Source of the DNA: a virus
Taxonomy: Duplodnaviria; Heunggongvirae; Uroviricota; Caudoviricetes
Virus record (IMG/VR): IMGVR_UViG_3300028486_000080
Span: 80,199 to 144,198 of that record
Length of the DNA: 64,000 bases
Strand: one strand, 5' to 3'
Shown here: piece after piece, positions 8,811-63,992 of the stretch
Layout of the letters: each line of letters starts with the position of its first letter
How positions within the stretch are numbered: position 1 is the stretch's first letter
Program-made: the position numbers and the translations under genes
The notes under the pieces: generated by a model
Told to the model about the DNA's origin: nothing
The model's input: the letters and a program-made list of their open reading frames with translations, nothing else
Databases searched by the model: none

Positions 8811-9383
8811 TCACGAGCCGAAAACCTCACGAGCCCAAAAAATTGACTGCACCATCGACATGCCGTGTCCCCGTGGGACAAATACTATGTTGGTTTTGTT
8901 GCTTTTTCTGAGGTTGTCTTCAGCGAGCATGGGTTGCAGGTTCCAGGGTACATGCAGTCCAGAGCGATCTTCACCCTTCAACGGTTCGATGTGATCTACG
9001 TGCCATTTCTGCCCGGTCGATAATTCTAGCTTACGTGCTAGCGCGAATACATCCTCGATAGCCCGCAGCATTTCGGGGTTGTCGAGCACCCATTTAGGTG
9101 TTGCATTGAGCAACATTGCTCGCGTTTTTGCTCCTTGAGCCCGCGTCTTGTGGCGATTGTTCTCAGCCCACTGCCGCGCGATCTCCCGCAGGCGATCATA
9201 GTTCTTATCACGGTATTTTGCATCATATGCCGCACGACGGTGGGGATGCTTCTTGCGGAATGCTATCGCATAGGCGGTATGACACACCTTGCACTTGGAC
9301 AGGCGTTTGTCTCGCGTATCGGGGCGATGGTGGAAGTCAGTGAGCGGCTTAATCTCGCCGCATGCTTTGCATTGCTTTGTCAT
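8811..9383 (-). CDS. HNH endonuclease
   Basis: N-terminal Cys4 zinc ribbon (CKACGE...CKVCH) and C-terminal HVDHIEPL...NLQPMLAEDNLRKSNK HNH motif. Confidence 0.75.
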   Translation of the reverse strand: MTKQCKACGEIKPLTDFHHRPDTRDKRLSKCKVCHTAYAIAFRKKHPHRRAAYDAKYRDKNYDRLREIARQWAENNRHKTRAQGAKTRAMLLNATPKWVLDNPEMLRAIEDVFALARKLELSTGQKWHVDHIEPLKGEDRSGLHVPWNLQPMLAEDNLRKSNKTNIVFVPRGHGMSMVQSIFWAREVFGS

Positions 9384-9429
9384 GGCGCAGGAGACTACAG
9401 ATATTAACCTTACTATGTCAAGCGCGTTA

Positions 9430-9600
9430 TCGTTAACTAGGCGTGAGTCGTAAGGCGAAAGGCGCTCGTCATTTTATGGGAGGATGCCCTATTTTCGTCG
9501 GGCGATACCTCCCCCTTCATTTTATTTGATGATGGGTCCACCCATTTTTCTGGGGGAAATGCCTCCCCCCTAGAGTCAATCTTAAGATGGGTCCGTTGCG
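9430..9600. repeat. iteron-like degenerate direct repeats in a 400-bp non-coding region
   Basis: four units of the form (C/T)ATTTT-N5-9-G-rich-CCCC(C) e.g. cattttatgggaggatgccc / tattttcgtcgggcgatacctccccc / cattttatttgatgatgggtccaccc / atttttctgggggaaatgcctcccccc. Confidence 0.4.
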
Positions 9601-9790
9601 TTTATTTCGCACGGTGCACTTATTGCGCTTTAACTCAATGAGGATGTGATGACTATGGGCAACAGTGGAGTGTGACACCTACATATTTATCTATGTGACA
9701 TGCGCGCAACGTCGGACTTAAATATGGTAGTTAAACTATAGGGTTCGCTTAACCTTAATTTATGAGTTCACGTGACACCTACCTAGAGTC

Positions 9791-10300
9791 ATGATTCGGT
9801 GGTTCCATAGATATAAGGAACATACGATGCCCCAGATCATGGCTAGAGTCACCCGGTTCGCCTCTGACTTCGGTAAGGGGCTGTGGAAGTTCACCCTTTC
9901 GCTGCCGCGTCAGGTGCTCGTCTTCATGGTCTACGCGGCTGTCGCCCTCCCGCTCGGCGGCGCCATCATGGATACGGTGCTCGTACCGATGCCCCTCTTG
10001 CATGAGGGTATCATCCCCCTAACGCTAGGCAACTTCTTTGTGTTCGCCTCGGTCGTGGTGCTCTTCATTGAGATCATGAAGTCTACGAACTACACTGATG
10101 CCGTCGTGCGCGACCACAACTATTCGATGTTGCTGCTATTGCTGTGTCTCGTGCTGCTCGCAGCCGTGCCCGCGTTCGGCACCATCACGTTCCTCGACTT
10201 CACCGTGCTTCTGCTCGCAGACGTGCTGCTCGGCTACAACGTCACGCAGGCTGTCGCCGGTCGCTCGCTTCAACTCGGCAACCTAACAGGTGGTAACTAA
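9791..10300 (+). CDS. polytopic membrane protein
   Basis: 169 aa with 4 predicted hydrophobic helices; ATGA overlap with the next membrane-protein gene. Confidence 0.5.
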   Translation: MIRWFHRYKEHTMPQIMARVTRFASDFGKGLWKFTLSLPRQVLVFMVYAAVALPLGGAIMDTVLVPMPLLHEGIIPLTLGNFFVFASVVVLFIEIMKSTNYTDAVVRDHNYSMLLLLLCLVLLAAVPAFGTITFLDFTVLLLADVLLGYNVTQAVAGRSLQLGNLTGGN

Positions 10301-10908
10301 TGGAAGCTATCAGCCCCGGCTTCATCGTCGGCTTCGGTATGGGATTTTGGGCTTGGGTAGTCCTCGCTATTTGGACGGTTTCCATAATCACGCTCGTGGC
10401 GTGGGAGCGCCCCGGTTCCGCTGCGCTGACAGTCGTCATCACCCTCGCTATCTTACAGTTTGTCGGCGGAAAAGACGTGTTGGGCTACATCCTCGACAAC
10501 CCCATGACCATCCTCAAGTGGGGCGCATACTACGTCGCGGTTGGCGTTGCTTACTCGTTTGTACGCTGGGATCAGGTTGGACGCGAGTGGCGTAAAAACT
10601 ACGAGTCAGCCGAGCCAGGAAGCGGCACTCAAAAATACTATTGGGACAACCAACCAGACGCGGCGCAGAGCAAGAGCCGTATTGTTTCGTGGACCATGTT
10701 TTGGCCATGGAGCATGTTCTGGTGGCTGCTCTCGGATGTCATCAAGAATGCTTTCGAATGGCTCTATTCAAAGCTGTCTGGCGTCTACACGGCTATAACT
10801 CGGCGCCACCTTGCGGGCGTGGTACCTCCTCCAACCCCCTTTCAAAAGGGTAATGCTGCGCAGAATTTGAATGCTAGAGAATCCTACTCGTCAAGCGACG
10901 GTGGCTAG
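10300..10908 (+). CDS. polytopic membrane protein (Trp-rich)
   Basis: 202 aa; 3-4 hydrophobic helices, WTMFWPWSMFWW aromatic belt. Confidence 0.5.
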   Translation: MEAISPGFIVGFGMGFWAWVVLAIWTVSIITLVAWERPGSAALTVVITLAILQFVGGKDVLGYILDNPMTILKWGAYYVAVGVAYSFVRWDQVGREWRKNYESAEPGSGTQKYYWDNQPDAAQSKSRIVSWTMFWPWSMFWWLLSDVIKNAFEWLYSKLSGVYTAITRRHLAGVVPPPTPFQKGNAAQNLNARESYSSSDGG

Positions 10909-11000
10909 TGATCAAGACGCGAGGTAGCCCGCGTTAACGGTATGTTAATCTTTTACATGTAGACCAAGGGAGAGTATGTAGCACGAGCCGGGGAGTTTTG

Positions 11001-11969
11001 ATGATTGTAAGCGCTGACACGATCCGTAACTTCCGTATGAAAGTTGATGTCGCCCTTGAGTCTCACCACTCATGGGTGAACATCTTTCTTATGACGTTGG
11101 TTATCGCCAACGTGTCCGCGTTCGCCCTCGCGACCGAGCCTGCTGTCCACGACCGCTACTTCACGGTGATCCTTTGGTTTGAGCTTGTCTCTCTCGCGAT
11201 CTTCTCCGTCGAGTATGTGGCGCGCATCTGGGCGCATCCTCAGCCTCGCTGGCGCTTTGCGCTGGAGCCGATGCAGATCATCGACTTCCTGTCTATCGTC
11301 CCGGCAGCTATCGCCCTCACGGTTGGGCATATCGATCTGGGCATCCTCTTCCTGCTACGCCTGATTCGTTTCATCAAGATCGTGCGCTATTCGCAGGGCG
11401 TCGGCTTGCTTTGGGCAGTGATCAAGCAGGAGCGTTCGGCGCTGTTCTCCTCTACGCTGATCATGTTCGGGCTTGCCGTTGTGACGGCGACGGTGATGTA
11501 TTTTCTTGAGCGCGACGCGCAGCCCGACAAGTTCGGATCGGTAGTGCAGGCGATGTGGTGGAGCTTCACCACGCTTGGTACTATTGGCTACGGCGATGTC
11601 GTGCCAGTGACGGTCGCAGGCAAGATCGCTACATGTGTGATGATGATAATCGGCGTCGGCACTTTTGCCATCCCCTTCGCGCTGATCGCGTCGGGCTTCA
11701 CAGCGCAGTTCTCTTTCACGCCCTCGCCGGTCACGGTACCTATCCCGGTTTCCGTCCCCGCAAACACGCTTGTCAACGTGCGCTATGCTGATCACGTTGC
11801 CGAGTTCGCACGACCAAACGGAGAGTCAGACGGCATCAACCTGATCCACCTCGAAGACCCGGTGATCGCGCGTGTGATCACTGATCTGTTGAACGGATCG
11901 GCAGCCGTGAATTTCAACGAGACCACGAAGACGTGGATCATAACGGAGGAACCGAATGCGATTGTTTAA
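11001..11969 (+). CDS. voltage-gated potassium channel homologue (6TM Kv-type)
   Basis: S4 voltage sensor LLRLIRFIKIVRY (basic residue every third position); pore helix plus selectivity filter WWSFTTLGTIGYGDVVP; S1-S6 hydrophobic segments; GGGAG RBS 5 nt upstream of ATG 11001. Confidence 0.85.
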   Translation: MIVSADTIRNFRMKVDVALESHHSWVNIFLMTLVIANVSAFALATEPAVHDRYFTVILWFELVSLAIFSVEYVARIWAHPQPRWRFALEPMQIIDFLSIVPAAIALTVGHIDLGILFLLRLIRFIKIVRYSQGVGLLWAVIKQERSALFSSTLIMFGLAVVTATVMYFLERDAQPDKFGSVVQAMWWSFTTLGTIGYGDVVPVTVAGKIATCVMMIIGVGTFAIPFALIASGFTAQFSFTPSPVTVPIPVSVPANTLVNVRYADHVAEFARPNGESDGINLIHLEDPVIARVITDLLNGSAAVNFNETTKTWIITEEPNAIV

Positions 11970-12219
11970 TGATGAAGTGCCTGAGGATATCCAGGCGAAG
12001 TATCTCTCGCTCGCAGAGACGGCGCTGGAGCGGATTAAGCACAACTTGCCAATCCCTAGCGACGAGCTTGACGTGTTGCGAGCTATCGTGCGTATATCGG
12101 ATAGTTCTCGTGGGGCTTCCCCCCTCATTGAGAACCTTCCACGGTGCCATACGAGCGGGCAGTTACTCTGTCCGTGTTGCGGTGAGCACCTAGGAACGGA
12201 AGCCCCGCCGCTGCAATAG
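11956..12219 (+). CDS. hypothetical small protein
   Basis: 87 aa ORF overlapping the channel gene end by 14 nt; C-terminal CPCCGEH cysteine cluster. Confidence 0.3.
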   Translation: MRLFNDEVPEDIQAKYLSLAETALERIKHNLPIPSDELDVLRAIVRISDSSRGASPLIENLPRCHTSGQLLCPCCGEHLGTEAPPLQ

Positions 12220-12282
12220 GTTTCAGCGCCCCAATTGCGCGCAGGCTTCCTCAGGCGCCCCTGATGCTTACCCCCCGAGGCA

Positions 12283-12849
12283 TCAGGGGCGCCGCTTCTT
12301 TACAGTGTAGACGGTCGCCACGCGAACCCGGCGATTAGGTGCCTGTTCTATCGGCACCCATTTCTCGATATGAGAACAGCAATAGTAGCCCCCGAGCACG
12401 ACCGCCCAATGTCCATCCGGCTCACGCTTGGTCCCGCATAGCTCAATCACATAGGCGACCCCAGCCTTTCGTTTGTAGGTCTTCAGCCACTTTGCCATTG
12501 TGAGGTGGTCTAGTAGCTCGCCATGGCACATGTAGAACAGGCGCATGGCGTAGCCGAGTTTGTGTAGAGCAAACTCCAGGTCTTCAGCCCGAGTACCGGT
12601 AACCACACTTTTCCGGTTCTTTCTATGGGCACGGATCAACTCACGAATAAGTTCCGTATCGGCACCAGTTATGGCGGACACGACCGCAGGTCCGCACCAT
12701 AGGAGGGTATTAAGGTTATGATTGATGGCGTAGGGCTTAACTGGATGCCCTTTAACCAACTCCGTCATTTCGATCTCAGCAAAGATCAACCCCGCAAGGC
12801 GGACCTTGGACGCAGCGCGATACTCAGCTAGGTATTGTGATCGCGCCAT
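12283..12849 (-). CDS. hypothetical protein
   Basis: 188 aa ORF; no recognised motif. Confidence 0.45.
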   Translation of the reverse strand: MARSQYLAEYRAASKVRLAGLIFAEIEMTELVKGHPVKPYAINHNLNTLLWCGPAVVSAITGADTELIRELIRAHRKNRKSVVTGTRAEDLEFALHKLGYAMRLFYMCHGELLDHLTMAKWLKTYKRKAGVAYVIELCGTKREPDGHWAVVLGGYYCCSHIEKWVPIEQAPNRRVRVATVYTVKKRRP

Positions 12850-13476: not shown

Positions 13477-14067
13477 ATGATCGTGCTGGCAATCGACACC
13501 GACTCCAGAGGCGCTATGGCGATGCTCGACACGAGGCGCCTGATGCTCGACGTGTTCGCGACACCGACCGAGAAGATCAAGATGGCGAGCGGGAAGTCGC
13601 AGCTACAGATGAACTTGCCTGTCCTAGCTGCGATTTTGCACGATCTGACCTCGCATGCCGATGTGGCATGGCTGGAAAAGCAATGGGCTCGCCCAAACCA
13701 GGGCGTAACCAGCACCTTCGGATTCGGCAAGACCTACGGGGAATATCGGGGGATAGTGACGTTCGGGTTTCTCGAAAAAGAGTGCAGTCCGCTACCGCAA
13801 CTTCAAGAGCGCGTACACCTAGTTTCGGGCGCTGAGTGGAAGGGCAAGATGCGCCTGACGAAAGATAAGAAAGAAGCACGAGCGCTGGCGACGCAACTGT
13901 TTCCTGAGTGCGCTAGCGCGTGGAAGAGTAAGGATTCCAGCGCCGAAGCAAGCCTTTTGGCATTCTACGGGGCATCTATGCTTGGTGAAAAAATCCCTTT
14001 CGGAGCTAAGATCAAGCCGAGCATTGTTCGTTACACCGCGCACGCAGAAAGTCTTATTAAGCGTTGA
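13477..14067 (+). CDS. possible RuvC-like Holliday junction resolvase
   Basis: N-terminal MIVLAIDTDSRGAMAML resembles the RuvC catalytic-Asp motif; C-terminal AEASLLAFYG resembles the RuvC DAADALA region; weak. Confidence 0.35.
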   Translation: MIVLAIDTDSRGAMAMLDTRRLMLDVFATPTEKIKMASGKSQLQMNLPVLAAILHDLTSHADVAWLEKQWARPNQGVTSTFGFGKTYGEYRGIVTFGFLEKECSPLPQLQERVHLVSGAEWKGKMRLTKDKKEARALATQLFPECASAWKSKDSSAEASLLAFYGASMLGEKIPFGAKIKPSIVRYTAHAESLIKR

Positions 14068-14651: not shown

Positions 14652-16328
14652 ATGACCATGATGTCCTCGGCACGGCGCAACCTTAAGCGCTTCAAACCTC
14701 AATCGGAAGTCCAGTGGCTAGACCACTCTGACCGTGCGCGCCACCGCACGACCATTCGATTGCTCACCGATATGGCGATGGCGCTCGAATCGGGAACGCC
14801 TCTTACGCCTGCGCAAGAGGCGCTGGTCTATTCCGTCACTCAGTCTGATGTCATCGACACGCGCATCAACGCAGCGTGGAACATGCTTGATCAGACCACC
14901 CTCGACTTCACGCGCAAGCTTGCCGAAATGGCACCGTATGACCTGACGGCATTCCATGAAGTCATGAATCCCGACCAAGCTCCCGCCATGCATCAGATCA
15001 TGGTGTGCGAAGAGCTTATGAAGGTCGCGCGCGGCGAGACCAACACGCTGCTGCTTGCCATGCCACGCGGTGCTGCCAAGACAACGCTCGCCTCTAAGTC
15101 GTTCGCTCAGTGGTGGATGGGACTCAACCCTGACAAGCGCGTTCTGGCAGTTGGTCACGGTCAGAAGTGGATCGATAACGAAATCTCCAAGCCCAACCGT
15201 ACCGCCCTAGAGTCAGACAACTATCGTCTCGTCTTCCCCGACGTAGAGTTGAACACAAACGAGCGCGCTGGCGACTTCTGGCGCCTGCAAGACTGGAAAG
15301 GCTCCTACACATCGCGCGGCGCACTCGCAGGTATTCTCGGTGTGCGTTCGAACCTCGTCCTAGCCGACGACTTGTTCAAGTCTCCTGCCGACGCGTTGTC
15401 GGAGATCGTGCGCGAGAACATCTGGAATTGGTTCACCGCCGCCGTCATGCCGACGCGCCTCCCGTATGCTCCTATCGTGATGGTCAACACGCTCTGGCAC
15501 TCAGAAGACGTGATGAGCCGCATGATCAAGATGGCGGAAGAGAACCCTGATTCGATCCCGCAGCCATGCAAGATCATCAATATCCCGTGCCAGTGTCACG
15601 ATGAAGAAACTGATCCGCTCGGACGCAAGCTCGGTGAGTGGATTTGGCCCGAGTTCTACCCGCCATCGCATTGGGAGAACTTGCGCAACACAATGCCACC
15701 GACGTTGTGGTCCTCACAGTTCCAAGGCATCGCTCTCGACAAGCAGGGTGACTTCGTTGCTGAGGAAGACTTCAAGCGCTATGAGACGCTGCCGGTGAAT
15801 CGTGAAGGTCACCCTATCCAGTGGACCAAGACGGTTATGTCGGTCGATACACCGCTCAAGGGTGCCGACCGCTCGGACTACACTGCAATCTTGATCTTCC
15901 GCCGTCACGTTGACGGTACCCACTACCTCGTTGACGCGTGGCGCGGTAAGAAAAAGATGGATGAGATCATACGCGTCATGTCGCGGCTCATGACGACATG
16001 GGAGTGCGGATATGCCCTGGTAGAAGACTCAGCCATGGGCGCCCAAATTCTCCAGAACTACGGCAACAAGATGCCGTGCCCCATGGTGGCAATCCCCAAC
16101 TCACCGATGAGCACCAAAGAGTTCCGCTTCGATGCCGCTTCCACATGGATCACGAGCGGGAAGGTTCTCTTCCCGCAACAGGCACCATGGCTCACTGATC
16201 TGATCAACGAGTTTATCTCGTTCCCGAACGGGTCAAACGACGACCAAGTGGACGCGTTCTCTCAGTATTGTCAGATGGAACTCAAACGTTTCAAGGGCGG
16301 CACGAAAGCCCTCAAGATGCGGATGTGA
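14652..16328 (+). CDS. terL: terminase large subunit
   Basis: Walker A LLLAMPRGAAKTT, ATPase domain followed by nuclease-like C-terminal domain with acidic residues; 558 aa; typical size and order. Confidence 0.85.
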   Translation: MTMMSSARRNLKRFKPQSEVQWLDHSDRARHRTTIRLLTDMAMALESGTPLTPAQEALVYSVTQSDVIDTRINAAWNMLDQTTLDFTRKLAEMAPYDLTAFHEVMNPDQAPAMHQIMVCEELMKVARGETNTLLLAMPRGAAKTTLASKSFAQWWMGLNPDKRVLAVGHGQKWIDNEISKPNRTALESDNYRLVFPDVELNTNERAGDFWRLQDWKGSYTSRGALAGILGVRSNLVLADDLFKSPADALSEIVRENIWNWFTAAVMPTRLPYAPIVMVNTLWHSEDVMSRMIKMAEENPDSIPQPCKIINIPCQCHDEETDPLGRKLGEWIWPEFYPPSHWENLRNTMPPTLWSSQFQGIALDKQGDFVAEEDFKRYETLPVNREGHPIQWTKTVMSVDTPLKGADRSDYTAILIFRRHVDGTHYLVDAWRGKKKMDEIIRVMSRLMTTWECGYALVEDSAMGAQILQNYGNKMPCPMVAIPNSPMSTKEFRFDAASTWITSGKVLFPQQAPWLTDLINEFISFPNGSNDDQVDAFSQYCQMELKRFKGGTKALKMRM

Positions 16329-19371: not shown

Positions 19372-22300
19372 TCAGATGTCGTCACGATCATACGGAGGGA
19401 TGTGAGTGTCAACGTTATCCAGCGCCTCAAGATAATCTGCTTCATCGATGATGCGCAGAGAGTGTAGTTTGGTGATGACTTCACGGCGAGTAGGTAATAC
19501 TAAGGCTTTGACTGTCTTGTTCTCGCTACGGATTGTGCGAGACATATCGGAGGGAAGTCTACCGAAGTATTTCTTGAACAGTTCTGTATACTTACTACGC
19601 TCAAACCGCGCTGACCCTCCTGCTATGAACTTGAGGTAAACTTCAAACGCAGCTTTTAAGCTTTCGTTCTTTACTACGAACTCTGCATCAAGTCCCCAAG
19701 ATAACGTTACCGGTAGAGGAACAGAGTCACCGACACTAGTCAAGCGCCCATACTTGATGAACTCAAGGAAGAATTCGGATGCCGGGTCGATTGACTGACC
19801 AATCTGTCCACGCTTAGCCTCAGTGCTCGGTGGATTGAACAGGTCGCTCCGCGTCAGTCCATGATCTTCAGGCTTCCAGTTCTTGATGTGATGCAGCCAG
19901 AAGCGGCAGCCGTTCTTCTCAGTCAGCCATTCACGGAGATTTTCGAAGTAGGCTGTCTTCTGCTTCTGGGCATCTGACGTGCGGATCACGAAGAAGCGAC
20001 GGTCGTCACTGTCCAAGTGAAGCGCATGTTCCGAGTTCGATGTGAAGAAGTAGCGCGTGAAGTGCGGCACCATGTAGGTGTCGATACCCTTGCGCTCGAT
20101 ACGCAGCGTCTCTTGCGCTACCTTACCTTTGAGGTATGCCGCTTGACCCTTGTTGCCAGCAAACAGCGCCTCATCGGCGTAGAACACAAGCTTGTTCTCC
20201 GCCAGCCCGTTGAAGTTGCCGGTGAGATCGTTAGGGCTTGCTGACTGCACATAGTAGGGGCTTAGCATGTGGCGCAACCCGTGCTCGAACACAATAGATT
20301 TGCCGGTACCTTGCCCACCAAGGATCACAACACTGGAGTGTGGCTTAAGCCCTGGGTTGGTGAAGATGTCCCAGATGTATAGCTGAAGCCAGTTGAAGTT
20401 GCGCTCATCACCCTCGCACCAGATGTTCTTCAAATGGTCAAGGATGGGCGACGCGTCACCCTCCAGCGGTTGCATGCGGAAGCCTGACCACATGTTGAAC
20501 ATGCCGTCATCGGTCTCTTCATTCGGCTGACCAGGATCGAACGTAACGCCGCGGTACATTTTGATATCGCGACAACGCGTGTTCCACACGTTGAACATCA
20601 ACTCAGTCTGGAGGCGATCTTTCCCAGTGCGCGGGTCTTTCTTGTAAGCCTCCACTGTCCAGTTGGAATATCGGAGTGCCATAGATTCCTTGCTGAGCAT
20701 CTTGGGGACGCCAGCCTTCCGGCTTTCTTCCAGATCAAGGAACATCGTGGTTGTGCCGTTCTGCACTTTGGCGAACAGAGAGGTGAGGAAGTTCATATGT
20801 TTGACTACAAGCTCAGCATGCGTCGCCGCGGCTAGATAGTCAGACTGCTCTTTGAAAGCACGCTCTGTCTGCACATGGGTGCGCCCGTAGTAGGCGGCGA
20901 TCTTTCGAAGCGCAGCGTCGCGCTCGCGCCCGACGATCTGCTCGGTTAGTAGGTCACCGATAGCGCGCGCAAAATCAAAGTCGCGCAGCTTGGCGACCAT
21001 CTTGCCGAACTCGCCTGCTGATACGAGCACTACTTCAGGCATCTGTCGCGCGAACTCAGCGACCGAACTTATGTCAGCCTTAGAGGCGGCGCACATAGCC
21101 GCCATGTGTTCAGGATCAATTACGATACCGTTAGAGGTTACAGACTTGGTGAAGTCCACTAGATGCTGCGCAAAGCGTGCTTCCAGCAATTGCTCTTCGA
21201 GCTTGGTCAAGGCTTCAGCCTTGTCCTGAATCGAATGAAGCTCCGTGAGCTTCAAGTCAAAGTCAGGAATCGTATCTGGGTCGATACCCATACCCTGTGC
21301 CGCTTCATTGACCGGGATGTCAATGTGCGCAGGCGCGTCCAACTCCTGGGGTTTTGGAAGTCCAAGATCATCAGCGGTGACGTAACCATCGAGAATCAAC
21401 TTCTTAAGGAAGTCCAGGCGTCGATAGTTGGAAAGATTTTGACATGAGTTGTGCTGACAGTAGATAGTCCACGGACGCTCCTCACCATCACCGGTAACAG
21501 CGAAGGTGCCCAACCCCCCCGGCTCTGTATGATCCTCTTCAAAGGGGCACTGAATGTGGATGCCCTCTTTCCCCCCCGAACGGGGACCACGGATGTGATC
21601 CTCAGGGAGGCAATTGTGCAGCATACCTTCTATGTCGAAGGTGTCTTTGTTCTTGCGATCCCATACGGGGATATCGATACGCCGCCCATTCTTGTCGTAT
21701 ACGATGTAGTCGGTCGGAGATTTCTTCGTAACAGTGCCGTCAGCATTGACTTTCTTGTCAGTGCTTGAGCGCTGCGAGCGAGGATAGTTCGTATAGTCAA
21801 GTAGGGGACCATCATAGAAGCGCACGAAATGCGTGTTGGTACCGACAAGGTGCCCCGGCATGTAATGCAAACGGGACGGATCGGAGCAAGCCTCATCGTA
21901 TTTGAGTTCTAGGGACTCACCGACTCCGTGGTAGATCGCCTTGTAGGTTTCAACAGCTACACTTGTGAGCTTGCTCAGCTTGGCGAGAACGATAGGCTTG
22001 TCACCTAGAGGAAACACCACACGTAGTTTATCTTCAGGTGCATGCTCGATTAGGTAGACGATACCGTTACCAGTATGCGCGGTCTCGCCGGTGAATTTTA
22101 CGTCGGTAAGGTGCCCCTTCTTTGTGGCTTTAAGATACTCAAGCATGGACTCCAGGTCAGGAGTCGTCTTGGCGCCAGCGCGCTTTGCCCACTTGTCGTA
22201 GGCGTCGGTCTTCACCGTCGTAGAGGTGCGCCCGTGATTGAATGTGGTGTAGAGGACAGCCTTCAAGCCTGCCTTGGCGAGGATGTCTTCAACTTCCTTC

Positions 22301-22533
22301 ACCGAGTTGGTGCCGTCGATATCGTAGACCAGACAGTTGACTTCAGGGACCGAAGTCGCGGCGCGCTTACCACCGACCAGACGCCCTGGTAGGAAGCACA
22401 TGCCATCTTTGTCTTTGCGGGGATTGTGGATTGAGAGCAACTTAATGAGTTGCTGTTCAGTAAGAGCCTTCTCTTCGTATACTTTCGTTTCTGCGCGTGG
22501 CGCGAACGTAATGCTGTACTTAAGGTCCGTCAT
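19372..22533 (-). CDS. primase-helicase (AEP primase-polymerase domain plus D5-type SF3 helicase)
   Basis: AEP motif CLVYDIDG near N-terminus; Zn-binding C/H cluster (IQCPFEEDHTEPG...CQHNSC); Walker A VILGGQGTGKS and Walker B FYADE in C-terminal half; 1053 aa. Confidence 0.8.
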   Translation of the reverse strand: MTDLKYSITFAPRAETKVYEEKALTEQQLIKLLSIHNPRKDKDGMCFLPGRLVGGKRAATSVPEVNCLVYDIDGTNSVKEVEDILAKAGLKAVLYTTFNHGRTSTTVKTDAYDKWAKRAGAKTTPDLESMLEYLKATKKGHLTDVKFTGETAHTGNGIVYLIEHAPEDKLRVVFPLGDKPIVLAKLSKLTSVAVETYKAIYHGVGESLELKYDEACSDPSRLHYMPGHLVGTNTHFVRFYDGPLLDYTNYPRSQRSSTDKKVNADGTVTKKSPTDYIVYDKNGRRIDIPVWDRKNKDTFDIEGMLHNCLPEDHIRGPRSGGKEGIHIQCPFEEDHTEPGGLGTFAVTGDGEERPWTIYCQHNSCQNLSNYRRLDFLKKLILDGYVTADDLGLPKPQELDAPAHIDIPVNEAAQGMGIDPDTIPDFDLKLTELHSIQDKAEALTKLEEQLLEARFAQHLVDFTKSVTSNGIVIDPEHMAAMCAASKADISSVAEFARQMPEVVLVSAGEFGKMVAKLRDFDFARAIGDLLTEQIVGRERDAALRKIAAYYGRTHVQTERAFKEQSDYLAAATHAELVVKHMNFLTSLFAKVQNGTTTMFLDLEESRKAGVPKMLSKESMALRYSNWTVEAYKKDPRTGKDRLQTELMFNVWNTRCRDIKMYRGVTFDPGQPNEETDDGMFNMWSGFRMQPLEGDASPILDHLKNIWCEGDERNFNWLQLYIWDIFTNPGLKPHSSVVILGGQGTGKSIVFEHGLRHMLSPYYVQSASPNDLTGNFNGLAENKLVFYADEALFAGNKGQAAYLKGKVAQETLRIERKGIDTYMVPHFTRYFFTSNSEHALHLDSDDRRFFVIRTSDAQKQKTAYFENLREWLTEKNGCRFWLHHIKNWKPEDHGLTRSDLFNPPSTEAKRGQIGQSIDPASEFFLEFIKYGRLTSVGDSVPLPVTLSWGLDAEFVVKNESLKAAFEVYLKFIAGGSARFERSKYTELFKKYFGRLPSDMSRTIRSENKTVKALVLPTRREVITKLHSLRIIDEADYLEALDNVDTHIPPYDRDDI

Positions 22534-27422: not shown

Positions 27423-29333
27423 ATGACCCTAAACCTCTATCAACAAGTCATTCACCGTTCACGCTACGCACGTTGGTCAGAGGAGGAAGGGAGACGCGAA
27501 GATTGGGACGGGACGGTTGATCGTTACTTCGGCTTTTTCGAGTCACACCTAGAAAAGCGCCACGACTACAAAATCCCCCCCAAGCTTCTAAAAGCACTCG
27601 ACAAGGCACTCCGCAACATGGAGATCATGCCCTCCATGCGCACCTTCATGACTGCCGGTCCCGCGCTGGAGTCATGTGAAGTCGCCAACTACAACTGCGC
27701 TTACCTACCCGTCGACTCCGTGCGTGCATTCTCTGAGCACATGTACGTGCTTATGAGTGGCAGCGGTTCTGGCTTCTCCATCGAGCGGCGCTTCACTGAT
27801 AAGCTGCCTGAGATTCCACACGAGCTTCATCCAACCGATACCATCGTGAAGGTATCTGACAGCCGCAAGGGGTGGTGCGTTGCCCTCAATCAGTTCCTCC
27901 AACTTCTGTTCGGCGGCAGCATCCCAGGCTATGATACTTCCAAGCTTCGCAAGGAAGGCGAGAGGCTGAAGACGTTCGGCGGATACTCGTCTGGTCCGAA
28001 GGTGCTCGAAGAGCTATTCGAACACATCATCAAGGTCTTCCTCAAGGCTCGCGGACGTAAGCTCCGTCCTGTGGAAGTCTTCTCTATCTTCTGTTTCATT
28101 GCTCAGATCGTTGTCGTCGGAGGCGTGCGTCGCTCGGCAACAATCGCTCTGTTCGATAAGGACGACGTTGAAATGCGTCGTGCGAAGAGCGGCGCTTGGT
28201 GGGTGGAGAACCCGCACTACGCTATGGCTAATGTATCAGCGGTATTCGAGTCCAAGCCAGAAGCCGTAGAGTTCATGGACATCTGGCGCGATCTCACTGC
28301 GTCTGGATCGGGTGAGCCGGGATTCCTCAACCGTGCGGCGTTGTGGGATCAATGTGATGCTATCGGTAGAGCGACGCGTGAAGCCAATGGTGATCGCATC
28401 TACTTTGGCGTCAACCCGTGCTGCGAGATCATCTTGCGCCCGTATGAGTTCTGCAACTTGACTGGCGTGGCTATTCGCCCTGAGGATACGCTGGAGGATT
28501 TGGTCCGAAAGGTACAGCAAGCGACTATTCTCGGAACGTGGCAATCTACGGTCAGCGAGTTCGATTACCTGCGTAAGATATGGAAGGACAACGTTGACGG
28601 AGAGCGGCTGCTTGGTGTCTGTCTCGCTGGGATGATGGACCACCCCGTGTTGTCCAAGAAGACCGAAGAGAGCCAGGAGTGGCTGAATATCCTTCGCAAT
28701 GAGGCGTGGATAACCAATCAGAAGTTTGCGGGCGACATCGGCATTGAGCCCTCGGCTTCTGTCACGGCTGTCAAGCCTGCCGGTAACTCTGGTGAACTCT
28801 ATGATGTGTCCTCGGGCATCCATCCTCGGTTCGCTCCATACTACATCCGCACGATTCGTCAGTCTAACGGCGACCCGATGACAAAGTTCCTCCAGGAGCA
28901 GGGTGTGCCTTGGGAAGTGTCTAAGCAGAATCCGAGAGATATCGTTTTCAGCTTCCCTATTAAGTCTCCAGATGGCGCGATCTGTGCCGACCAGCTACCG
29001 GCATTGGAACAGCTTGAGCATTGGTTGCACGTGAAGACGCACTTCACGACGCACACGGTTAGCTGCACTATATACGTTAACAAAGATGAATGGCTGGATG
29101 TCGGTGCCTGGGTATACAAGCACTTCGATCAGGTGACCGGGCTCAGCTTCCTACCGTACGATGACCACACCTATGAGCAGGCGCCCTATCAAAAGATCAC
29201 GAAGGAGGCTTATGACCTGTTTATGGATCAGATGCCTACAGAGATCGACTGGAGCCAATTCAAGGAAATGGAAGACACAACCACGGTCAGTCAGGAGTAC
29301 GCCTGCACGGGCGGAGCCTGCGCTCTGGTATAA
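27423..29333 (+). CDS. nrdJ: ribonucleotide reductase, class II (B12-dependent, monomeric type)
   Basis: active-site segment GVNPCCEIILRPYEFCNLTGVAI (NPC.E...E.CNL hallmark); C-terminal CTGGAC cysteine pair; no NrdB partner in the window; 636 aa. Confidence 0.65.
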   Translation: MTLNLYQQVIHRSRYARWSEEEGRREDWDGTVDRYFGFFESHLEKRHDYKIPPKLLKALDKALRNMEIMPSMRTFMTAGPALESCEVANYNCAYLPVDSVRAFSEHMYVLMSGSGSGFSIERRFTDKLPEIPHELHPTDTIVKVSDSRKGWCVALNQFLQLLFGGSIPGYDTSKLRKEGERLKTFGGYSSGPKVLEELFEHIIKVFLKARGRKLRPVEVFSIFCFIAQIVVVGGVRRSATIALFDKDDVEMRRAKSGAWWVENPHYAMANVSAVFESKPEAVEFMDIWRDLTASGSGEPGFLNRAALWDQCDAIGRATREANGDRIYFGVNPCCEIILRPYEFCNLTGVAIRPEDTLEDLVRKVQQATILGTWQSTVSEFDYLRKIWKDNVDGERLLGVCLAGMMDHPVLSKKTEESQEWLNILRNEAWITNQKFAGDIGIEPSASVTAVKPAGNSGELYDVSSGIHPRFAPYYIRTIRQSNGDPMTKFLQEQGVPWEVSKQNPRDIVFSFPIKSPDGAICADQLPALEQLEHWLHVKTHFTTHTVSCTIYVNKDEWLDVGAWVYKHFDQVTGLSFLPYDDHTYEQAPYQKITKEAYDLFMDQMPTEIDWSQFKEMEDTTTVSQEYACTGGACALV

Positions 29334-37999: not shown

Positions 38000-38001
38000 T
38001 T

Positions 38002-38085: not shown

Positions 38086-38087
38086 GG

Positions 38088-38161: not shown

Positions 38162-38185
38162 TGTTAGATTGTTACACTTTCTTAA

Positions 38186-38270: not shown

Positions 38271-38271
38271 A

Positions 38272-38349: not shown

Positions 38350-38361
38350 TTTTGTAAGTTT

Positions 38362-57454: not shown

Positions 57455-59611
57455 TTAGTTTCCTCTCAAGAATTCGATGACACGCTGCTGCCCTGGAAGA
57501 TAAGGCTCGGCACGCATGTTGTGGGTATTACCGAAGAAGTCAGCGCAGCGCGGTAATGTCTTGTCACATCCAGGAGCGTAGACAAATTTGTCTCCTACTT
57601 GGATGTCATATGGTAGCTTCTCGTAAAGCTTTGCTACCTTTGATGTGTTGTCCCATACGCGAATAAAGCTGGTGCGCCCAGCGTTGTTACCAGACAGCCA
57701 AACAATCTTACCGCTATAGAAGAGTGTGGATGTGATGCTTAGTCCAACAATTTCGAACGTCTTCTTGTCAGTAACATCACTTACCTCATCGAAGCCAAAG
57801 TGCGGCTGTCTACACTGTACAACCGCAGCGCCGTCTACCGTATAGTCGTTCAGGTCAAAATCATACGTCGGCTCTTCATCCGCAAGTAGACCATAATCAG
57901 GGTCGTTTACATGCTCATATGCCGTCACAATAAAATGCATCTTGGCATCATCAAACACGACGTTCGCGGCTGAGTCTCCGCGTGCATAAAGCGTGATGCG
58001 CATCTTTGCCGAGCCAGCGGGTGCACGTCCGCCAGCACGCAACGTATACCACTCGCCTGTTGGACTAGTCGTATCGTATCCAGAGTCGTAGGTTGCCAAG
58101 ATACTGTTCGAAGAGTTCAAGAACTCCAATGTAATGCGTGGATCACTATCAGTGTCAATGCGTGCAACTTTAACGGACGCCTCACCATAGTACCAACCAG
58201 CCGTTAGATTGTCAGATGTGGGTGATCCTGGGATGTTCTTAGTCTGTGATAGCTGATAGACTTGGTTTGGGTTGCCGCTGCCGTTATTACCTCCTCCGAG
58301 AATATACGAACCAGCCTGAGGAGTGAGCCCACCAAATGTCGTTCCAACTTTCCAATACGAGCCTCCGCCAAAAGTCCACCCCGAGATACCGCTAGTACCG
58401 TTGCTAACAGCCCCGTTGGACTCAAAGCTAGGGTTATCCATGTTGATGGCTTCGTTTGCTCCCCGCGCTGGTAGACGCATAGTTCTGAAGACTCGATTGC
58501 TGAATGATGCAACATCATTCTCCCAATAGCGTAGAACTATCTGATCGAAGGCAACTGTGGCAGCAGAGCCTTCGATACGCCGCGCGCGGATGCCGATACG
58601 CACGTGACGCGTGCCGGGAAGCATGAAGGCAGCTACACCTATACCCTCCCATACTTGATATTCCGGTTGGATGTAGTCTGATGTCTGAACCTGAAGCGTG
58701 TTACCACTGTCATCGAACTGTTCCAGGTACACCGCACCGGTATTAGCGAGCGAGGCGTTGGTGCTAGCGATAAGCCCTGACAGGTCAAGCGTATATAGCC
58801 CAGCATCCACATCAGTATCGGTGACGCCTAGGTCGGATAGATCGAAATCCTGGTACAGAACAAATTCTTCTGCGTCTCCAGTGCCGCCTTCTAGGTAGTA
58901 AGTTCCGGCTCCCGGCGTGAAATTGTCTTCCACCTTCCAGAAGGATGTGGCTCCATAAAACCACCCGGTTATCCCGGAGTTACCGTTGGCTACAGTTGAT
59001 CCGTTAGCTTCGAACCCTGGGTTGGTCACTGTTACCGGGGTGAAGTCAGTTGGAACTAGAAACCAATCAAATGTCTTCACACGCTGCCGATTGCGCCGTA
59101 TGCGCGTCGGTACATTGACAATACCACACTTCTTCCCTCCCAGGTTGACGCGACATGTCGGTGAATATTTTTCAACGATAGTCTTTTGTAGCGCTTGGGT
59201 GAGACCGCGTAGCTGAACAGTGACATTAGTCTCACTGTTGAAAGTTATGTCGCCCAGGGTTCCCTTCTTAAGCGCGATAACACCATCACTTGGGTCTTCC
59301 CAATTCACTATGACCATTTCAAATGGTGCCTGATCATACAGTCCGTTCTCGAAGTCTTCCTTTTTGAGGTAGACGCCATCGAGTACGAAATATAACTCAG
59401 CGTTATCCACGCTAAGTGTGTCAGTGCTTTGCAGGGCAGAACGGCTGTAGGACGCCTCAGCACGGTAGATATCTCCGTCTATTGTAATAGAGGAGTCGTG
59501 CGTCGTGAGGCGCACCACGCTACCATCGGTGCGGGTGATCTTCAGGCACTCGGCAAGTGACGTAACTTGCTGTGCAATATGTGTCTGAAGGGCTGAGGGT
59601 ATCGTGCGCAT
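57455..59611 (-). CDS. distal tail protein, BR0599/DUF2163 family (GTA gp13-like) with two inserted carbohydrate-binding-like modules
   Basis: N-terminus LKITRTDGSVVRLTTHDSSITIDGDIYRAEASYSRSALQSTDTLSVDNAEL and C-terminus CDKTLPRCADFFGNTHNMRAEPYLPG match DUF2163/Phage_BR0599; internal duplicated approx. 60-aa module NP(S/G)FE(S/A)NG...G(I/T)(S/T)GW..G...WKV. Confidence 0.6.
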   Translation of the reverse strand: MRTIPSALQTHIAQQVTSLAECLKITRTDGSVVRLTTHDSSITIDGDIYRAEASYSRSALQSTDTLSVDNAELYFVLDGVYLKKEDFENGLYDQAPFEMVIVNWEDPSDGVIALKKGTLGDITFNSETNVTVQLRGLTQALQKTIVEKYSPTCRVNLGGKKCGIVNVPTRIRRNRQRVKTFDWFLVPTDFTPVTVTNPGFEANGSTVANGNSGITGWFYGATSFWKVEDNFTPGAGTYYLEGGTGDAEEFVLYQDFDLSDLGVTDTDVDAGLYTLDLSGLIASTNASLANTGAVYLEQFDDSGNTLQVQTSDYIQPEYQVWEGIGVAAFMLPGTRHVRIGIRARRIEGSAATVAFDQIVLRYWENDVASFSNRVFRTMRLPARGANEAINMDNPSFESNGAVSNGTSGISGWTFGGGSYWKVGTTFGGLTPQAGSYILGGGNNGSGNPNQVYQLSQTKNIPGSPTSDNLTAGWYYGEASVKVARIDTDSDPRITLEFLNSSNSILATYDSGYDTTSPTGEWYTLRAGGRAPAGSAKMRITLYARGDSAANVVFDDAKMHFIVTAYEHVNDPDYGLLADEEPTYDFDLNDYTVDGAAVVQCRQPHFGFDEVSDVTDKKTFEIVGLSITSTLFYSGKIVWLSGNNAGRTSFIRVWDNTSKVAKLYEKLPYDIQVGDKFVYAPGCDKTLPRCADFFGNTHNMRAEPYLPGQQRVIEFLRGN

Positions 59612-60228
59612 TACGATGGGTCTTTGAGTTCTACGACATTGATGCCGTCAGATGAATTGATGCGGTGTGCTTCCCAAGATATTTCTAGTTGGTCGATATC
59701 GAAGCGGACAGGAACATCGAACTCACACGTCACCTTGATTGTGTGAGTATCGGGCGGGGGCGACACGAAAGTGATGATCCCTGTCGTATGATCAACTGTG
59801 TAGTCTGTGGTTAGCGTCTTAACGACATCGTTGACTTTGACTACGACTGTGCCGTTTACTGGCTTTTTGATGTCACGCACATAGCTGTAAATACCTACGG
59901 CATATGTCTTAGTGATCTGGAACTCGTTTTCGACACCATTGCCGGTACCGATGAGGGAATCGGTTAGCCGCCAGTCACCCCAATCGCGCATGCGAAAACC
60001 GGTGGCACGCCCACGACACACGTAGAACATGGCTAGGACGGTCTGGAAGTCGTCCTCATGACGGATTCCGTAGGACAGGTCATACTTGGCGCGAGATTTG
60101 GACCAACTAGAATTGCGCTGCTCGTATCCAGCCTCCGACTCGAAGATAGTCGTTCGAAAGCCAGGACCACCTTGTGATCCTTCCGATACTTCAATATCAA
60201 GTCGTTCCTCGATGAACGGGGTGGGCAT
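59611..60228 (-). CDS. tail protein, DUF2460 family (GTA gp12-like)
   Basis: N-terminus MPTPFIEERLDIEVSEGSQGGPGFRTTIFESEAGYEQRNSSW matches the DUF2460/TIGR02217 signature. Confidence 0.6.
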   Translation of the reverse strand: MPTPFIEERLDIEVSEGSQGGPGFRTTIFESEAGYEQRNSSWSKSRAKYDLSYGIRHEDDFQTVLAMFYVCRGRATGFRMRDWGDWRLTDSLIGTGNGVENEFQITKTYAVGIYSYVRDIKKPVNGTVVVKVNDVVKTLTTDYTVDHTTGIITFVSPPPDTHTIKVTCEFDVPVRFDIDQLEISWEAHRINSSDGINVVELKDPS

Positions 60229-60290
60229 GGCGGTCCTAGGGTGTTAAGGTTAATTTGGTAACGTTAATATATAGCCGGAAAGGCTACATG

Positions 60291-63200: not shown

Positions 63201-63992
63201 ATACACAGCTAGACGTTCAAGATTATACTCAGAATCGACGAATGATGCCGCATTTAGATCGATTGATCCATTATTACTTGTTAGAACGGGTGCACCATTC
63301 TCATCTAGTTCTATTGCATTATTGAGGATCAGGATATCATTCATCCACACACGCAAGATTCCCGTCATTGGACCGACGCAAAGTCCAACCAGGAAGTCAA
63401 TCTTAGTGACGATATCAGTGTATTCAGTGACCTTGTTGTCGTTGGTCTGACTGTATGTCACCTCCTCTTCAGTTTCATTACCGATCCAAATGACATTACC
63501 TGCCACAACATAACGCCCAAACACACGCGGAATAACTACGTAGGCGGAGTTTGATGTGAGCTTTGCTATCGTCGGCTCATCAGCATCTTCAACAACTGGA
63601 GCCTCTGGATCAGGGTCAGTTGGCTGGCTGCCAGGATCATCATCATTACCACCACTATGGTGTGTCCCCTTAACACAGCTACGGCACTCACATTCATTGG
63701 CTATACTCGATATACAGTCCCTATAATCACTCTCAGCCGCGTCATCGCACCCATCCGGTATGTACCATCCATGGGCAAGCCCACAATTACCTTCATACAC
63801 CCAGCACTCAAACACCTGCTGATAAAACTGAACGCCACAGTCTTGTGTCTTCTCAAAATAGCATTGAAATAGCTGACGCTTACCCTGCTCCTCTTCACGC
63901 GAGCACTTAGGACCAATGCCTTGTATCGTCCCGTCGTTGTCTTGACACTTTTTTGCATAGTCCCCGCCGCTGGCGTCTATGCCCTCGTACAT
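60291..63992 (-). CDS. giant virion structural protein (tail fibre/host-specificity candidate), N-terminus may extend beyond window
   Basis: 1233+ aa, beta-rich, S/T/V/D/N-rich; Cys-rich N-terminal approx. 110 aa; immediately upstream of the GTA-like tail genes. Confidence 0.55.
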   Translation of the reverse strand: MYEGIDASGGDYAKKCQDNDGTIQGIGPKCSREEEQGKRQLFQCYFEKTQDCGVQFYQQVFECWVYEGNCGLAHGWYIPDGCDDAAESDYRDCISSIANECECRSCVKGTHHSGGNDDDPGSQPTDPDPEAPVVEDADEPTIAKLTSNSAYVVIPRVFGRYVVAGNVIWIGNETEEEVTYSQTNDNKVTEYTDIVTKIDFLVGLCVGPMTGILRVWMNDILILNNAIELDENGAPVLTSNNGSIDLNAASFVDSEYNLERLAVYRPTLEFISGSEAQHVQANIATEEGFGRVPANRGITGVLFRDVDVQLFNSNSFPSFRFEVFSTTPDTADPVLDTIVESVDNSYITVDQRTRIAYVANASEDESFLYDFDTLEHKYSADVAAPFVTLKSGYVWSDGDIVDPYRNRVVASLGSIAPASYSDSMVYYDANVAAYELALIADSATNNIAVVSFDYSAETAELLTAYTTSAPYAVEKALVLALGDFISYVQFAIDGADLKVLRYDVLSADNMLLDPHVFTSHTVVFGDLTGASIVSLVRDIADNSFVLMFSNGVSAKVSTDFAIVWRGTIPTLSLPAESATVIADTIHYFADGDDTIYALTLSTGEVTTYGSLVTSITGAQYYDSRTRSLLYITAEGLSRVFLDRMVPNRLAFSAILDTLAAQTGVSGIFNTDALDDQYLDGFMIDYKTNLAGIMTQMMELYQVAVVDDGQRLTVVSLSAFTDQVSADQSTDVIADSLKTSREASTSVVNTVTATFVAIDDTGLIEDTQSATLNPDLDQDDVRELLFTLKLLDNPVSVREKLEKVLTNRISSASTVSVSVLSKMLGIVPQDRLTINGQTYRVGSTILSPDFAMQVQGAVYDKSNMDISVTLDAAQLSTGSELVRPTKHPVYRPVALFLPNVTNEDVTRSLGGSQVVYTGIDAPEREIESTTFSIRLTGSPLYNSAAHTEALHSGLVTVAPLDIYPQQFLTDSDSVLTIAFNHEETVDFLTTNTLLIVGREYIRFGQFNDLGGGIVEFTALSRGQYGTESYMREHVVGEHAYLYTPESFKIMTVDPTYTVGLEPGKIIYRRPLPAGVPNLSFNVSVDGGSVRPPGPGDVRRFIVGGDDLACYIDWKYRRAYEVNNIDNCGELVNDFIPGSGNAFLVFLLAVPGDLTTFEQRVVKEKNWDADENGAYVIEVIPLGELEPHNATFFLASDPLVDPVHLAIVAIADDDTIVGRPTFVTFPPGKYPELPS

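Follow-up and report, generated by a model that had tools for sequence, protein, structure and literature searches.

A predicted Kv-type K+ channel subunit with an orphan C-terminal tail encoded by an uncultured tailed phage

Work on viral K+ channels has dealt almost exclusively with pore modules of two transmembrane segments (2TM), the type represented by Kcv, and even in bacteria it is still poorly understood what K+ channels do. Kcv is carried in the internal membrane of the virion, and tailed phages have no such membrane. In the survey of Greiner et al. (2018), the K+ channels of phages were 2TM proteins, except for one with four predicted transmembrane segments, and none of them had a voltage sensor (PMC6163359). 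A 2025 review of viral K+ channels does not contain the terms “bacteriophage,” “viral genomes,” or “metagenom,” and its sole mention of a channel with six transmembrane segments (6TM) refers to the cellular voltage-gated K+ (Kv) channels. MlotiK1 (MloK1) of Mesorhizobium loti (structures 2zd9, 3beh, and 4chv), the nearest characterized prokaryotic relative of the protein described below, is modulated by ligand, and, as noted by Kowal et al. (PMC4086158), no voltage sensing has been reported for it. Here, we examined a gene in a 64,000-nucleotide stretch of tailed-phage DNA (IMG/VR record IMGVR_UViG_3300028486_000080, positions 80,199 to 144,198; hereafter, “the window”), which, judging from the predicted fold and the conserved residues of its product, encodes a K+-selective 6TM subunit of the Kv type. 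The gene, the parts of its product, and the open reading frame (ORF) that follows it are listed below, with residues numbered from the ATG at position 11001.

11001..11969, + strand: K+ channel gene, a 6TM Kv-like core with an orphan tail (Pfam, PHROG, PDB, AlphaFold2, Foldseek)
11073..11390, + strand: S1–S4 voltage-sensor-like domain, residues 25–130 (AlphaFold2 helices; alignment to S2–S4 of Kv4.2)
11337..11390, + strand: S4 helix, residues 113–130 (alignment, conservation, AlphaFold2)
11394..11429, + strand: helical S4–S5 linker, residues 132–143 (DSSP on the AlphaFold2 model; nearest structures Kv4, Kv7, and Kv1)
11433..11717, + strand: pore module, S5 to S6 (Ion_trans_2 at 2e−15; invariant residues; MlotiK1-like sequence)
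11709..11966, + strand: orphan C-terminal tail of 86 amino acids, residues 237–322 (no Pfam domain, no cyclic-nucleotide-binding domain [CNBD] signal, low predicted local distance difference test [pLDDT] score)
11956..12219, + strand: ORF87, 87 amino acids, predicted helical hairpin and CPCCG knuckle (hhalign, hmmsearch, ribosome-binding site, AlphaFold2)

The reading frame that a sequence-only reading had placed at 10998–11969 is present. That reading counted it from a TTG at 10998, which gives 323 amino acids; the codon immediately after it, the ATG at 11001, lies 5 nt downstream of GGGGAG, gives 322 amino acids, and is the start used in the public gene calls of the identical protein (P0001). 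The product matched the Pfam family Ion_trans (PF00520) with 106.5 bits against a cut-off of 25 (E-value 1.6e−30; residues 24–235, profile positions 1–234 of 241), and Ion_trans_2 covered its pore. The phage protein family PHROG 7872 was matched at an E-value of 6.4e−35 (residues 19–237, profile positions 7–217 of 254). When PDB sequences were searched, Kv4.2 was the best match (9e−27), and KCNQ1, KCNQ2, KCNQ4, KCNQ5, Kv1.2, Kv1.3, Kv2.1, and MlotiK1 (2.5e−20) were also found. An AlphaFold2 model of the monomer, with an alignment of 56 homologues as input, had a pLDDT above 90 across most of residues 1–240, and its helices (S1, 25–44; S2, 47–78; S3, 90–108; S4, 113–130; S4–S5 linker, 132–143; S5, 145–170; pore helix, 181–194; S6, 205–239) were consistent with the hydropathy of the protein. 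In Foldseek, this model superposed on the open Kv4.2 structure 7uk5 (E-value 1.7e−10; root mean square deviation 3.6 Å over 249 columns; TM score 0.73 on the target), and KCNQ2 and Kv1.x also superposed. E-values of this size, in both the PDB sequence search and Foldseek, exclude a chance match. The product thus passes the profile threshold of the Ion_trans superfamily and has the six segments, the re-entrant pore helix, and the signature of its K+ branch, and the Kv-type 6TM architecture that had been proposed from the letters alone is borne out by the profile, the predicted helices, and the likeness to Kv4.2 in both sequence and structure.

All 19 columns that are invariant in the 56 homologues are kept in the phage channel, including R75, D95, R120, R123, W187, T194, G196, G198, D199, and P225, as are F68, E71, K126, R129, Y197, and G218, which are conserved in at least 90% of them. 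The charged and aromatic residues of the sensor domain are E46 in S1; E61, F68, E71, and R75 in S2; and D95 in S3, and among these F68, E71, R75, and D95 either do not vary or are kept in at least 90% of the homologues. E61, F68, E71, and D95 align with the F/E/D charge-transfer center of Kv4.2 and with the acidic residue (D) of its outer S2, and by this alignment the charge-transfer center and the counter-charges of a voltage sensor are present. The S4 string LLRLIRFIKIVRY carries R120, R123, K126, and R129, a basic residue at each third position, just as had been noticed without database searches. By alignment, the counterparts of these charges are the final four in S4 of Kv4.2; where Kv channels have their outermost arginines, the phage channel has leucines. 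An automated count of S4 charges across the compared loci over-counted and was not used. On these residues, voltage gating of the phage channel is plausible.

In the pore module, a pore helix with the W186–W187 cuff leads into the selectivity filter T194-I-G-Y-G-D199 (nt 11580–11597), which forms the end of the TLGTIGYGD segment recognized by the sequence-only reading (residues 191–199, nt 11571–11597). S6 has a glycine hinge at G218 and an invariant proline at P225, and the invariant residues of the pore are W187, T194, G196, G198, D199, P202, and P225. The pore sequence, LERDAQPDKFGS..AMWW..TLGTIGYGD, is of the MlotiK1 type (IERDIQPEKFGSIPQAMWWAVVTLSTTGYGD in MlotiK1), and the two are nearly identical over the pattern ERDxQPxKFGS..AMWW..TL.T.GYGD.

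Compared with Kv4.2 (7uk5/7e7z), KCNQ, and Kv1.x, the phage channel has the same six-helix topology, helical S4–S5 linker, WW pore helix, and T-x-G-Y-G-D filter, and it shares with Shaker-type Kv channels the glycine hinge and proline of S6 and the S2 Phe/Glu, S3 Asp, and S4 Arg/Lys residues, which align residue by residue. It differs from the eukaryotic Kv channels in having only four S4 charges, no T1 or other N-terminal domain, an identity of approximately 28–30%, P-x-A instead of P-V-P in S6, and an origin in a virus of prokaryotes. MlotiK1 comes from an alphaproteobacterium, the group to which the presumed host of the phage also belongs, but its S4 has only the last two charges, whereas that of the phage channel has four; furthermore, the phage channel has no CNBD and possesses the S6 proline that is absent from MlotiK1. 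Judged by these residues, the sensor of the phage channel is more Kv-like than that of MlotiK1 and less so than that of Shaker.

Among 5.8 billion clustered proteins, the best match after the protein itself had an identity of only 39%. Nearly all of the top relatives were proteins of 390–420 amino acids with Ion_trans and cNMP_binding domains, for example from Methyloceanibacter and Methyloligella (39–45% identity), and the best matches in species-representative genomes (38–43%) were also alphaproteobacterial: a metagenome-assembled genome of Devosia (41%), Amaricoccus (43%), Marinicaulis, and Methyloceanibacter. Another set of relatives had no CNBD and ended in a helical segment of 70–85 amino acids with CPxCG, such as an “ion transporter” of Pseudoalteromonas. 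The mean core identity of the phage channel was 44.5% to the 17 CNBD-bearing homologues found in a motif screen and 41.8% to the CPxCG type, and a neighbor-joining tree of the 216-column core (200 bootstraps) did not resolve its sister group. These comparisons place the phage channel in a proteobacterial clade predicted to combine a MlotiK1-like pore with an S1–S4 domain bearing Kv-type gating charges. The label of a Kv homologue, as given by the sequence-only reading, therefore holds for the sensor, but the closest cellular relatives are CNBD-bearing bacterial channels and not plain Kv channels.

PF00027 (cNMP_binding) was found in nearly all of the top relatives, and 34 of the 55 homologues aligned had a C-terminal extension of more than 130 amino acids. 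In the phage channel, the CNBD that directly follows S6 in channels of the MlotiK1 type is replaced by the tail of 86 amino acids, slightly shorter than the roughly 90 that had been estimated. From its sequence, the phage channel appears to have lost the CNBD relative to its nearest cellular relatives. The tail is acidic (net charge −6) and begins with a proline-rich linker, PSPVTVPIPVSVP. Searched alone, it matched nothing in Pfam even at an E-value of 10; against a profile of the CNBD-region C-termini of the homologues (34 sequences), it scored −2.1 bits, equal to the mean of its shuffles; and among 1.84 billion representative proteins, searched exhaustively, only the tail itself and one weak, repeat-driven match were found. 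A BLASTP alignment of the channel to one CNBD-bearing relative (P0002) extended without gaps into the CNBD, which gave rise to the idea that the tail is a degenerate, truncated CNBD; this idea was rejected because the profile score of the tail was no higher than that of its shuffles and no Pfam domain appeared at an E-value of 10. The pLDDT of the tail was below 55. The codon-position GC content in its frame matches that of the phage genes and fits the reading frame; therefore, the tail is probably translated. The weak match was to the MucB2-like repeats of a Gram-positive LPXTG adhesin of 2,392 amino acids (P0121; E-value 3e−5, 24–29% identity per repeat) around NVRYAD...IN.I..ED..IA (window 11709–11860, channel residues approximately 240–290). 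This likeness is unproven, probably inflated by the repeats, and possibly due to chance.

The channel gene is followed by ORF87, which was omitted from the sequence-only account. ORF87 (11956..12219) overlaps the 3′ end of the channel gene by 14 nt and has a GGAGGA ribosome-binding site 7 nt upstream, an arrangement that indicates translational coupling. Its product aligns colinearly with the helical, CPxCG-ending tails (70–85 amino acids) of the CNBD-less channel relatives (hhalign probability 81%, range 81–88%; E-value 1.2e−5; 66 columns). When hhalign was rerun, the score was 33.7, compared with 10.1 ± 2.2 for composition shuffles and 22.6 ± 2.3 (maximum 32.9) for shuffles in which CPCCG was kept; none of the 200 shuffles of either kind reached the real score. 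In hmmsearch, ORF87 scored 9.7 bits (0 of 300 shuffles), and the N-terminal 60 residues alone scored 3.7 bits (1 of 300). By these scores, the likeness beyond the CPxCG motif is still significant. AlphaFold2 predicted helices at residues 10–30 and 35–50 (pLDDT 71–81) and, weakly, the knuckle, with a mean pLDDT of 64 that is not decisive. The search found no other homologue of ORF87. A recent frameshift joining the channel and ORF87 was rejected, as there are several stops in the frame of ORF87 upstream of its ATG. We consider it probable, from the alignment scores, that ORF87 is a separately encoded version of the channel tail domain. In the uncharacterized CNBD-less CPxCG channels of bacteria, such as those of Pseudoalteromonas (P0073 and P0114), which share the 6TM core at approximately 42% identity, the tail resembles ORF87, including the invariant CPxCG; the phage has this tail-like domain in an ORF of its own, translationally coupled to the channel gene, and S6 is fused to an unrelated stretch of 86 amino acids.

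Among viral channels, the Kcv-type 2TM proteins (PBCV-1 Kcv and those of a vibriophage and mycobacteriophage Myrna; PMC6163359) share with the phage channel a K+ pore with G(Y/F)GD. Only the pore module aligns to 2TM viral channels (PHROG 14690 and 15627; BFVD), which have 80–230 amino acids and no S1–S4, whereas the phage channel has 322 amino acids and a full S1–S4 and so lies outside the pore-only Kcv type (2TM, approximately 80–130 amino acids). In BFVD, no significant full-length match was found, and 2TM pore-only proteins aligned at the pore with E-values of 0.036 or higher. The viral 6TM channels (PHROG 7872, Humcor1, and IMG/VR) are more similar: like the phage channel, they have the S4 sensor type and a TVGYGD pore and are encoded among phage genes. 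They share 25–42% identity with it and typically have 230–290 amino acids; the phage channel differs from them in its orphan tail of 86 amino acids, its partner ORF, its TIGYGD filter, and its location on a tRNA-rich contig of at least 165 kb. In the searched literature, there was no experimental characterization of virus-borne 6TM channels.

In isolate and GenBank phage records, 7 of 50,697 matched such a channel; two of the seven were bacterial chromosome and two were duplicates, leaving about four genuine, distinct cases. The genuine records are Halorubrum virus Humcor1, Dulem virus 33, a fecal phage contig, and Lactobacillus prophage PLE2, and the Humcor1 protein HrrHm1_130 is annotated as a “putative ion transport protein, six TM, CxxC.” The channels of “Acinetobacter phage MD-2021a” were rejected as a precedent because they lie in bacterial chromosome, flanked by acnB and ydhP; the records concerned, CAKLQH020000004.1 (L164) and CAKLQF020000002.1 (232 and 306 kb), look like mislabelled chromosomal sequence. 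In IMG/VR, at least 107 viral contigs with 6TM relatives came out of a scan for two narrow motifs. We inspected 41 of them; all had an S4 of the R-x-x-R type together with the T[VI]GYGD filter, in ORFs mostly of 200–290 amino acids. In spot checks, the channel had genuine phage surroundings: head and tail-fiber genes on either side (L024), helicase genes around it (L040), baseplate and tape-measure genes on either side (L029), and an integrase as its neighbor (L002). The statement of the sequence-only reading that channels with full voltage sensors are rare in bacteriophages is thus correct for isolate phage records, BFVD, and the literature, but such channels recur in IMG/VR and already have a family of their own, PHROG 7872. 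The channel type is recurrent in viruses, and the phage protein is a divergent member, with at most 42% identity to the viral ones.

The tail that follows S6 had a median length of 9 amino acids in 80 IMG/VR loci (L002–L081), none of which had a CNBD, and of 67 amino acids in 73 cellular loci (from the genome loci L082–L161, which were compared with the viral ones); 17 of the 80 viral channels ended in CPxC. Judged by these lengths, the stripping of cytoplasmic domains from virus-borne 6TM K+ channels is systematic. The retention of the sensor and the loss of the domain that binds cyclic AMP (cAMP) in the phage channel suggest phage selection for a K+ conductance uncoupled from host signaling, and the more than 100 similarly stripped 6TM channels in viral contigs point in the same way. 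By itself, the phage gene establishes no new category; what it contributes is a divergent member of the type, whose orphan tail and possibly detachable tail subunit seem unusual, with some uncertainty. If such channels are functional, they would provide compact, natural Kv-type channels for biophysics and a handle on whether phages manage the membrane potential and K+ pool of the host during infection.

From the sequence and the model, we consider it somewhat probable that the protein forms a tetrameric, K+-selective 6TM channel in the inner membrane of the infected cell that is independent of cAMP and probably voltage-gated. A captured gene, long resident in an alphaproteobacterial phage and now phage-like in codon composition, would be expressed during infection, and its product would insert into the inner membrane of the host as a tetramer with TIGYGD on the axis. 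It would conduct K+ under the control of the membrane voltage through the four S4 charges, independently of host cAMP, and ORF87 may serve as a detachable cytoplasmic subunit. The bacterial cytoplasm contains K+ far above external levels, and because of this excess an open K+ path drives the potential strongly negative. A path opened by depolarization could therefore, speculatively, pull the potential toward the K+ equilibrium and act as a repolarizing safety valve, and at high external K+ it might provide a route for K+ re-entry. Such a channel might stabilize the proton-motive force and K+ content against leakage on injection, depolarizing host defenses, and premature triggering of holin. 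In phages such as T4 and T5, the injection of DNA comes with a leak of K+ (PMC6163359), after which the proposed re-entry might take place.

Several points weigh against this proposal. The S4 helix has four charges and not six or seven, the two outermost arginines being absent, and gating by such a short-charged S4 may be weak or absent. The pore helix starts with S-V-V (residues 180–182), compared with a near-universal S-I-P in the 56 homologues, a change with a possible effect on the outer pore. For the tail, the 1.84 billion representatives contain no credible homologue, and the AlphaFold2 model gives no confident structure. The likeness of ORF87 is at approximately 20% identity, with the CPxCG motif giving about half of the score, and a split tail ORF downstream of a channel was not found in 99 other loci. 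Single-protein scans of IMG/VR found no close relative of the channel or of the phage. Finally, the physiological role is one that we infer entirely.

The missing outer arginines are also what an alternative would lead one to expect, in which S1–S4 is structural, as proposed for MlotiK1, and the protein, now lacking the CNBD, is a constitutive K+ leak or has its gate controlled by the orphan tail or ORF87, for example in response to Zn2+, redox, or a partner from the phage or the host. MlotiK1 is a precedent for ligand modulation, with no voltage sensing reported (PMC4086158), and for such gating the phage has an acidic tail on the channel and a partner ORF rich in cysteine. Unlike MlotiK1, however, the phage channel keeps four S4 charges together with the S2 Phe/Glu and the S3 Asp, and these are conserved across the clade; we therefore give this alternative a small but appreciable chance. 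Somewhat less likely still is an extension of the voltage-gated proposal, in which the regulatory domain has been split off as the Zn-knuckle subunit ORF87 and the phage electrically controls the infected cell. If this were true, the two-part device could clamp the potential against depolarization-triggered abortive infection or premature holin firing; no viral voltage-sensor channel would have had a demonstrated role before it, and its arrangement of channel and accessory subunit would be new.

The voltage-gated channel that we favor is encoded in a small, co-oriented cassette, the remaining elements of which are as follows.

9384..9826, + strand: intergenic region of 443 nt between the divergent HNH gene and ORF1, the presumed promoter/regulatory region
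9827..10300, + strand: ORF1, the first gene of the cassette, 157 amino acids, approximately four transmembrane segments (hydropathy; gene call on a public contig; AAGGAA ribosome-binding site before the ATG)
10300..10908, + strand: ORF2, 202 amino acids, two to three N-terminal transmembrane segments (hydropathy; its start overlaps the stop of ORF1)
12254..12293, no strand assigned: GC-rich hairpin of 16 bp between convergent genes (terminator scan; RNA fold)

ORF1, ORF2, the channel gene, and ORF87 are co-oriented, with overlapping or adjacent starts that have ribosome-binding sites, and form an operon-like unit of four genes on the + strand that is ended by the hairpin. The hairpin (−35.8 kcal/mol; z = −4.9; 0 of 200 shuffles) is likely to be a bidirectional terminator. 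Searches of Pfam, PHROG, NCBIfam, PADLOC, and the phage collection found nothing that matched ORF1. ORF2 matched nothing in the search of 5.8 billion proteins, and its only relatives were weakly similar (approximately 24% identity) hypothetical proteins of large Rhizobium phages, which adjoin TerD/vWA genes and not channels. Such weak homologues occur in Rhizobium phages of approximately 154–208 kb; in Rhizobium phage RHph_TM30 (L162, 90751–95009), they follow a cluster of tellurite resistance, vWA, membrane protein, and TerD-like genes, which suggests a membrane or ion-stress gene set. The two membrane-protein genes that the sequence-only reading had noted directly before the channel are thus real and hydrophobic, but its membrane-manipulation module amounts to adjacency, since neither gene has an informative homologue and the relatives of ORF2 do not lie beside channels. 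ORF1 and ORF2 as a conserved module were rejected, their homologues being either none or weak ones beside Ter-like genes.

Within the intergenic region, which precedes the cassette, GTGACACCTAC(A/C)TA occurs at 9672–9685 and, 100 nt further on, at 9772–9785; the window has no other copy, and this pair may be an operator or promoter element. An Rfam scan of the region upstream of the cassette found no riboswitch or RNA family, and promoter-like matches in 9384..9826 were not above chance. Convergent with the cassette, on the − strand, is an ORF of 188 amino acids (12283–12849) with conserved-looking Cys/His residues (LLWCGPAVV...HWAVVLGG), for which Pfam, PHROGs, NCBIfam, PADLOC, and PDB sequences gave no match.

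The tight packing of the channel gene with two co-oriented genes for small membrane proteins could be read as an effector cassette, in which the channel and the upstream membrane proteins depolarize the host or drain its K+ for superinfection exclusion, an abortive-infection-like switch, or the timing of holin. The gene is also accessory, in that the nearest cultured relatives of the phage (Lacusarx, Erythrobacter phages, and roseophage DSS3P8-like phages) are not among the channel-bearing records. However, no endolysin, holin, or spanin family was found in ORF1, ORF2, ORF87, or the 188-amino-acid neighbor (Pfam, PHROG, NCBIfam, and PDB), and the defense and abortive-infection models of PADLOC matched neither the channel nor five neighbors. 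A K+-selective pore is hyperpolarizing, not depolarizing, at normal gradients, and the upstream genes add nothing informative, the weak relatives of ORF2 lying beside Ter-like and not lysis genes. The lysis-timing role that the sequence-only reading had offered is unsupported by any endolysin, holin, or defense signature nearby, a lysis or defense role was rejected for want of profile, PDB, or PADLOC support, and we regard the effector explanation as improbable.

Slightly less credible again is that the gene is cargo in decay: a host channel was captured, a rearrangement removed its regulatory domain, and the product no longer works as a channel. The tail without a credible homologue, the tail-like domain in a separate frame with stops between, and the change of the near-universal pore-helix proline (SIP to SVV) are all what such decay might leave. 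On the other hand, the frame of 322 codons is intact and phage-like in codon composition, every invariant residue of the family is kept, the core is modeled with confidence, the protein is identical on three contigs, and the strong GGAGGA site before ORF87 suggests expression and not a relic.

The surrounding genes of the window are those of a phage.

8811..9383, divergent from ORF1: HNH/endonuclease VII gene, 1.6 kb upstream of the channel gene
13477..14067: RuvC-type resolvase gene, downstream of the channel gene
14652..16328: large terminase gene, with the channel gene 2.7 kb upstream of it
19372..22533: primase-like protein gene
27423..29333: ribonucleotide reductase gene
57455..63992: tail protein genes

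The channel gene thus lies within phage DNA, 2.7 kb from the large terminase gene, as the sequence-only reading had proposed in calling it phage-encoded. The codon-position GC contents (GC1/2/3) of the channel gene (0.56/0.40/0.74) match those of the terminase gene (0.56/0.42/0.72), which argues against recent capture, and in composition the channel gene does not stand out from the window as a whole. The identical channel protein occurs in the same context on three public contigs from different sources, of up to 165 kb. Although host DNA does find its way into viral records, as in the two “Acinetobacter phage” records of bacterial chromosome, mis-assembly or mis-binning of host DNA is very hard to reconcile here with phage genes on both sides (HNH upstream; resolvase and terminase downstream), the same arrangement on three contigs, the uniform composition, and the absence of any copy above 43% identity in cellular genomes.

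The terminase and primase share only approximately 30–33% identity with their counterparts in large siphoviruses of alphaproteobacteria (Sphingobium phage Lacusarx and Erythrobacter and Ruegeria phages), and the window had no match at the nucleotide level in the phage collection; therefore, the window represents a distinct lineage of uncultured, large, siphovirus-like phages, and its host is probably alphaproteobacterial. The window has 29 tRNA genes in clusters on the − strand (37923–53442) and a two-piece (permuted) transfer-messenger RNA (tmRNA) at 50171–50551 (Rfam alpha_tmRNA, 104.5 bits; tmRNA_permuted, 108.5 bits) with the tag peptide ANDNSPMVEDFRIAA. The tmRNA and tRNAs point to an alphaproteobacterial host and a heavy investment in translation.

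Three further features of the window were observed apart from the channel cassette. Three tandem-like copies of AAAACCTCACGAGCC-NAAAA lie at 8767–8844, where the gene for the HNH endonuclease has its 3′ end, and just downstream of this gene. A protein of 449 amino acids encoded at 5020–6369 on the − strand has Pfam TadE/Tad and weak vWA matches (a Tad-pilus-like pseudopilin or TadG-like protein) and no PHROG match, and is unusual cargo for a tailed phage. Between the tRNA clusters, an NAD+ salvage pair is encoded on the − strand (40416–41786 and 42106–43125), consisting of a nicotinamide phosphoribosyltransferase (PHROG 448, 2e−143) and a cytidylyltransferase (nucleotidyltransferase)-Nudix fusion (PHROG 395, 7e−73).

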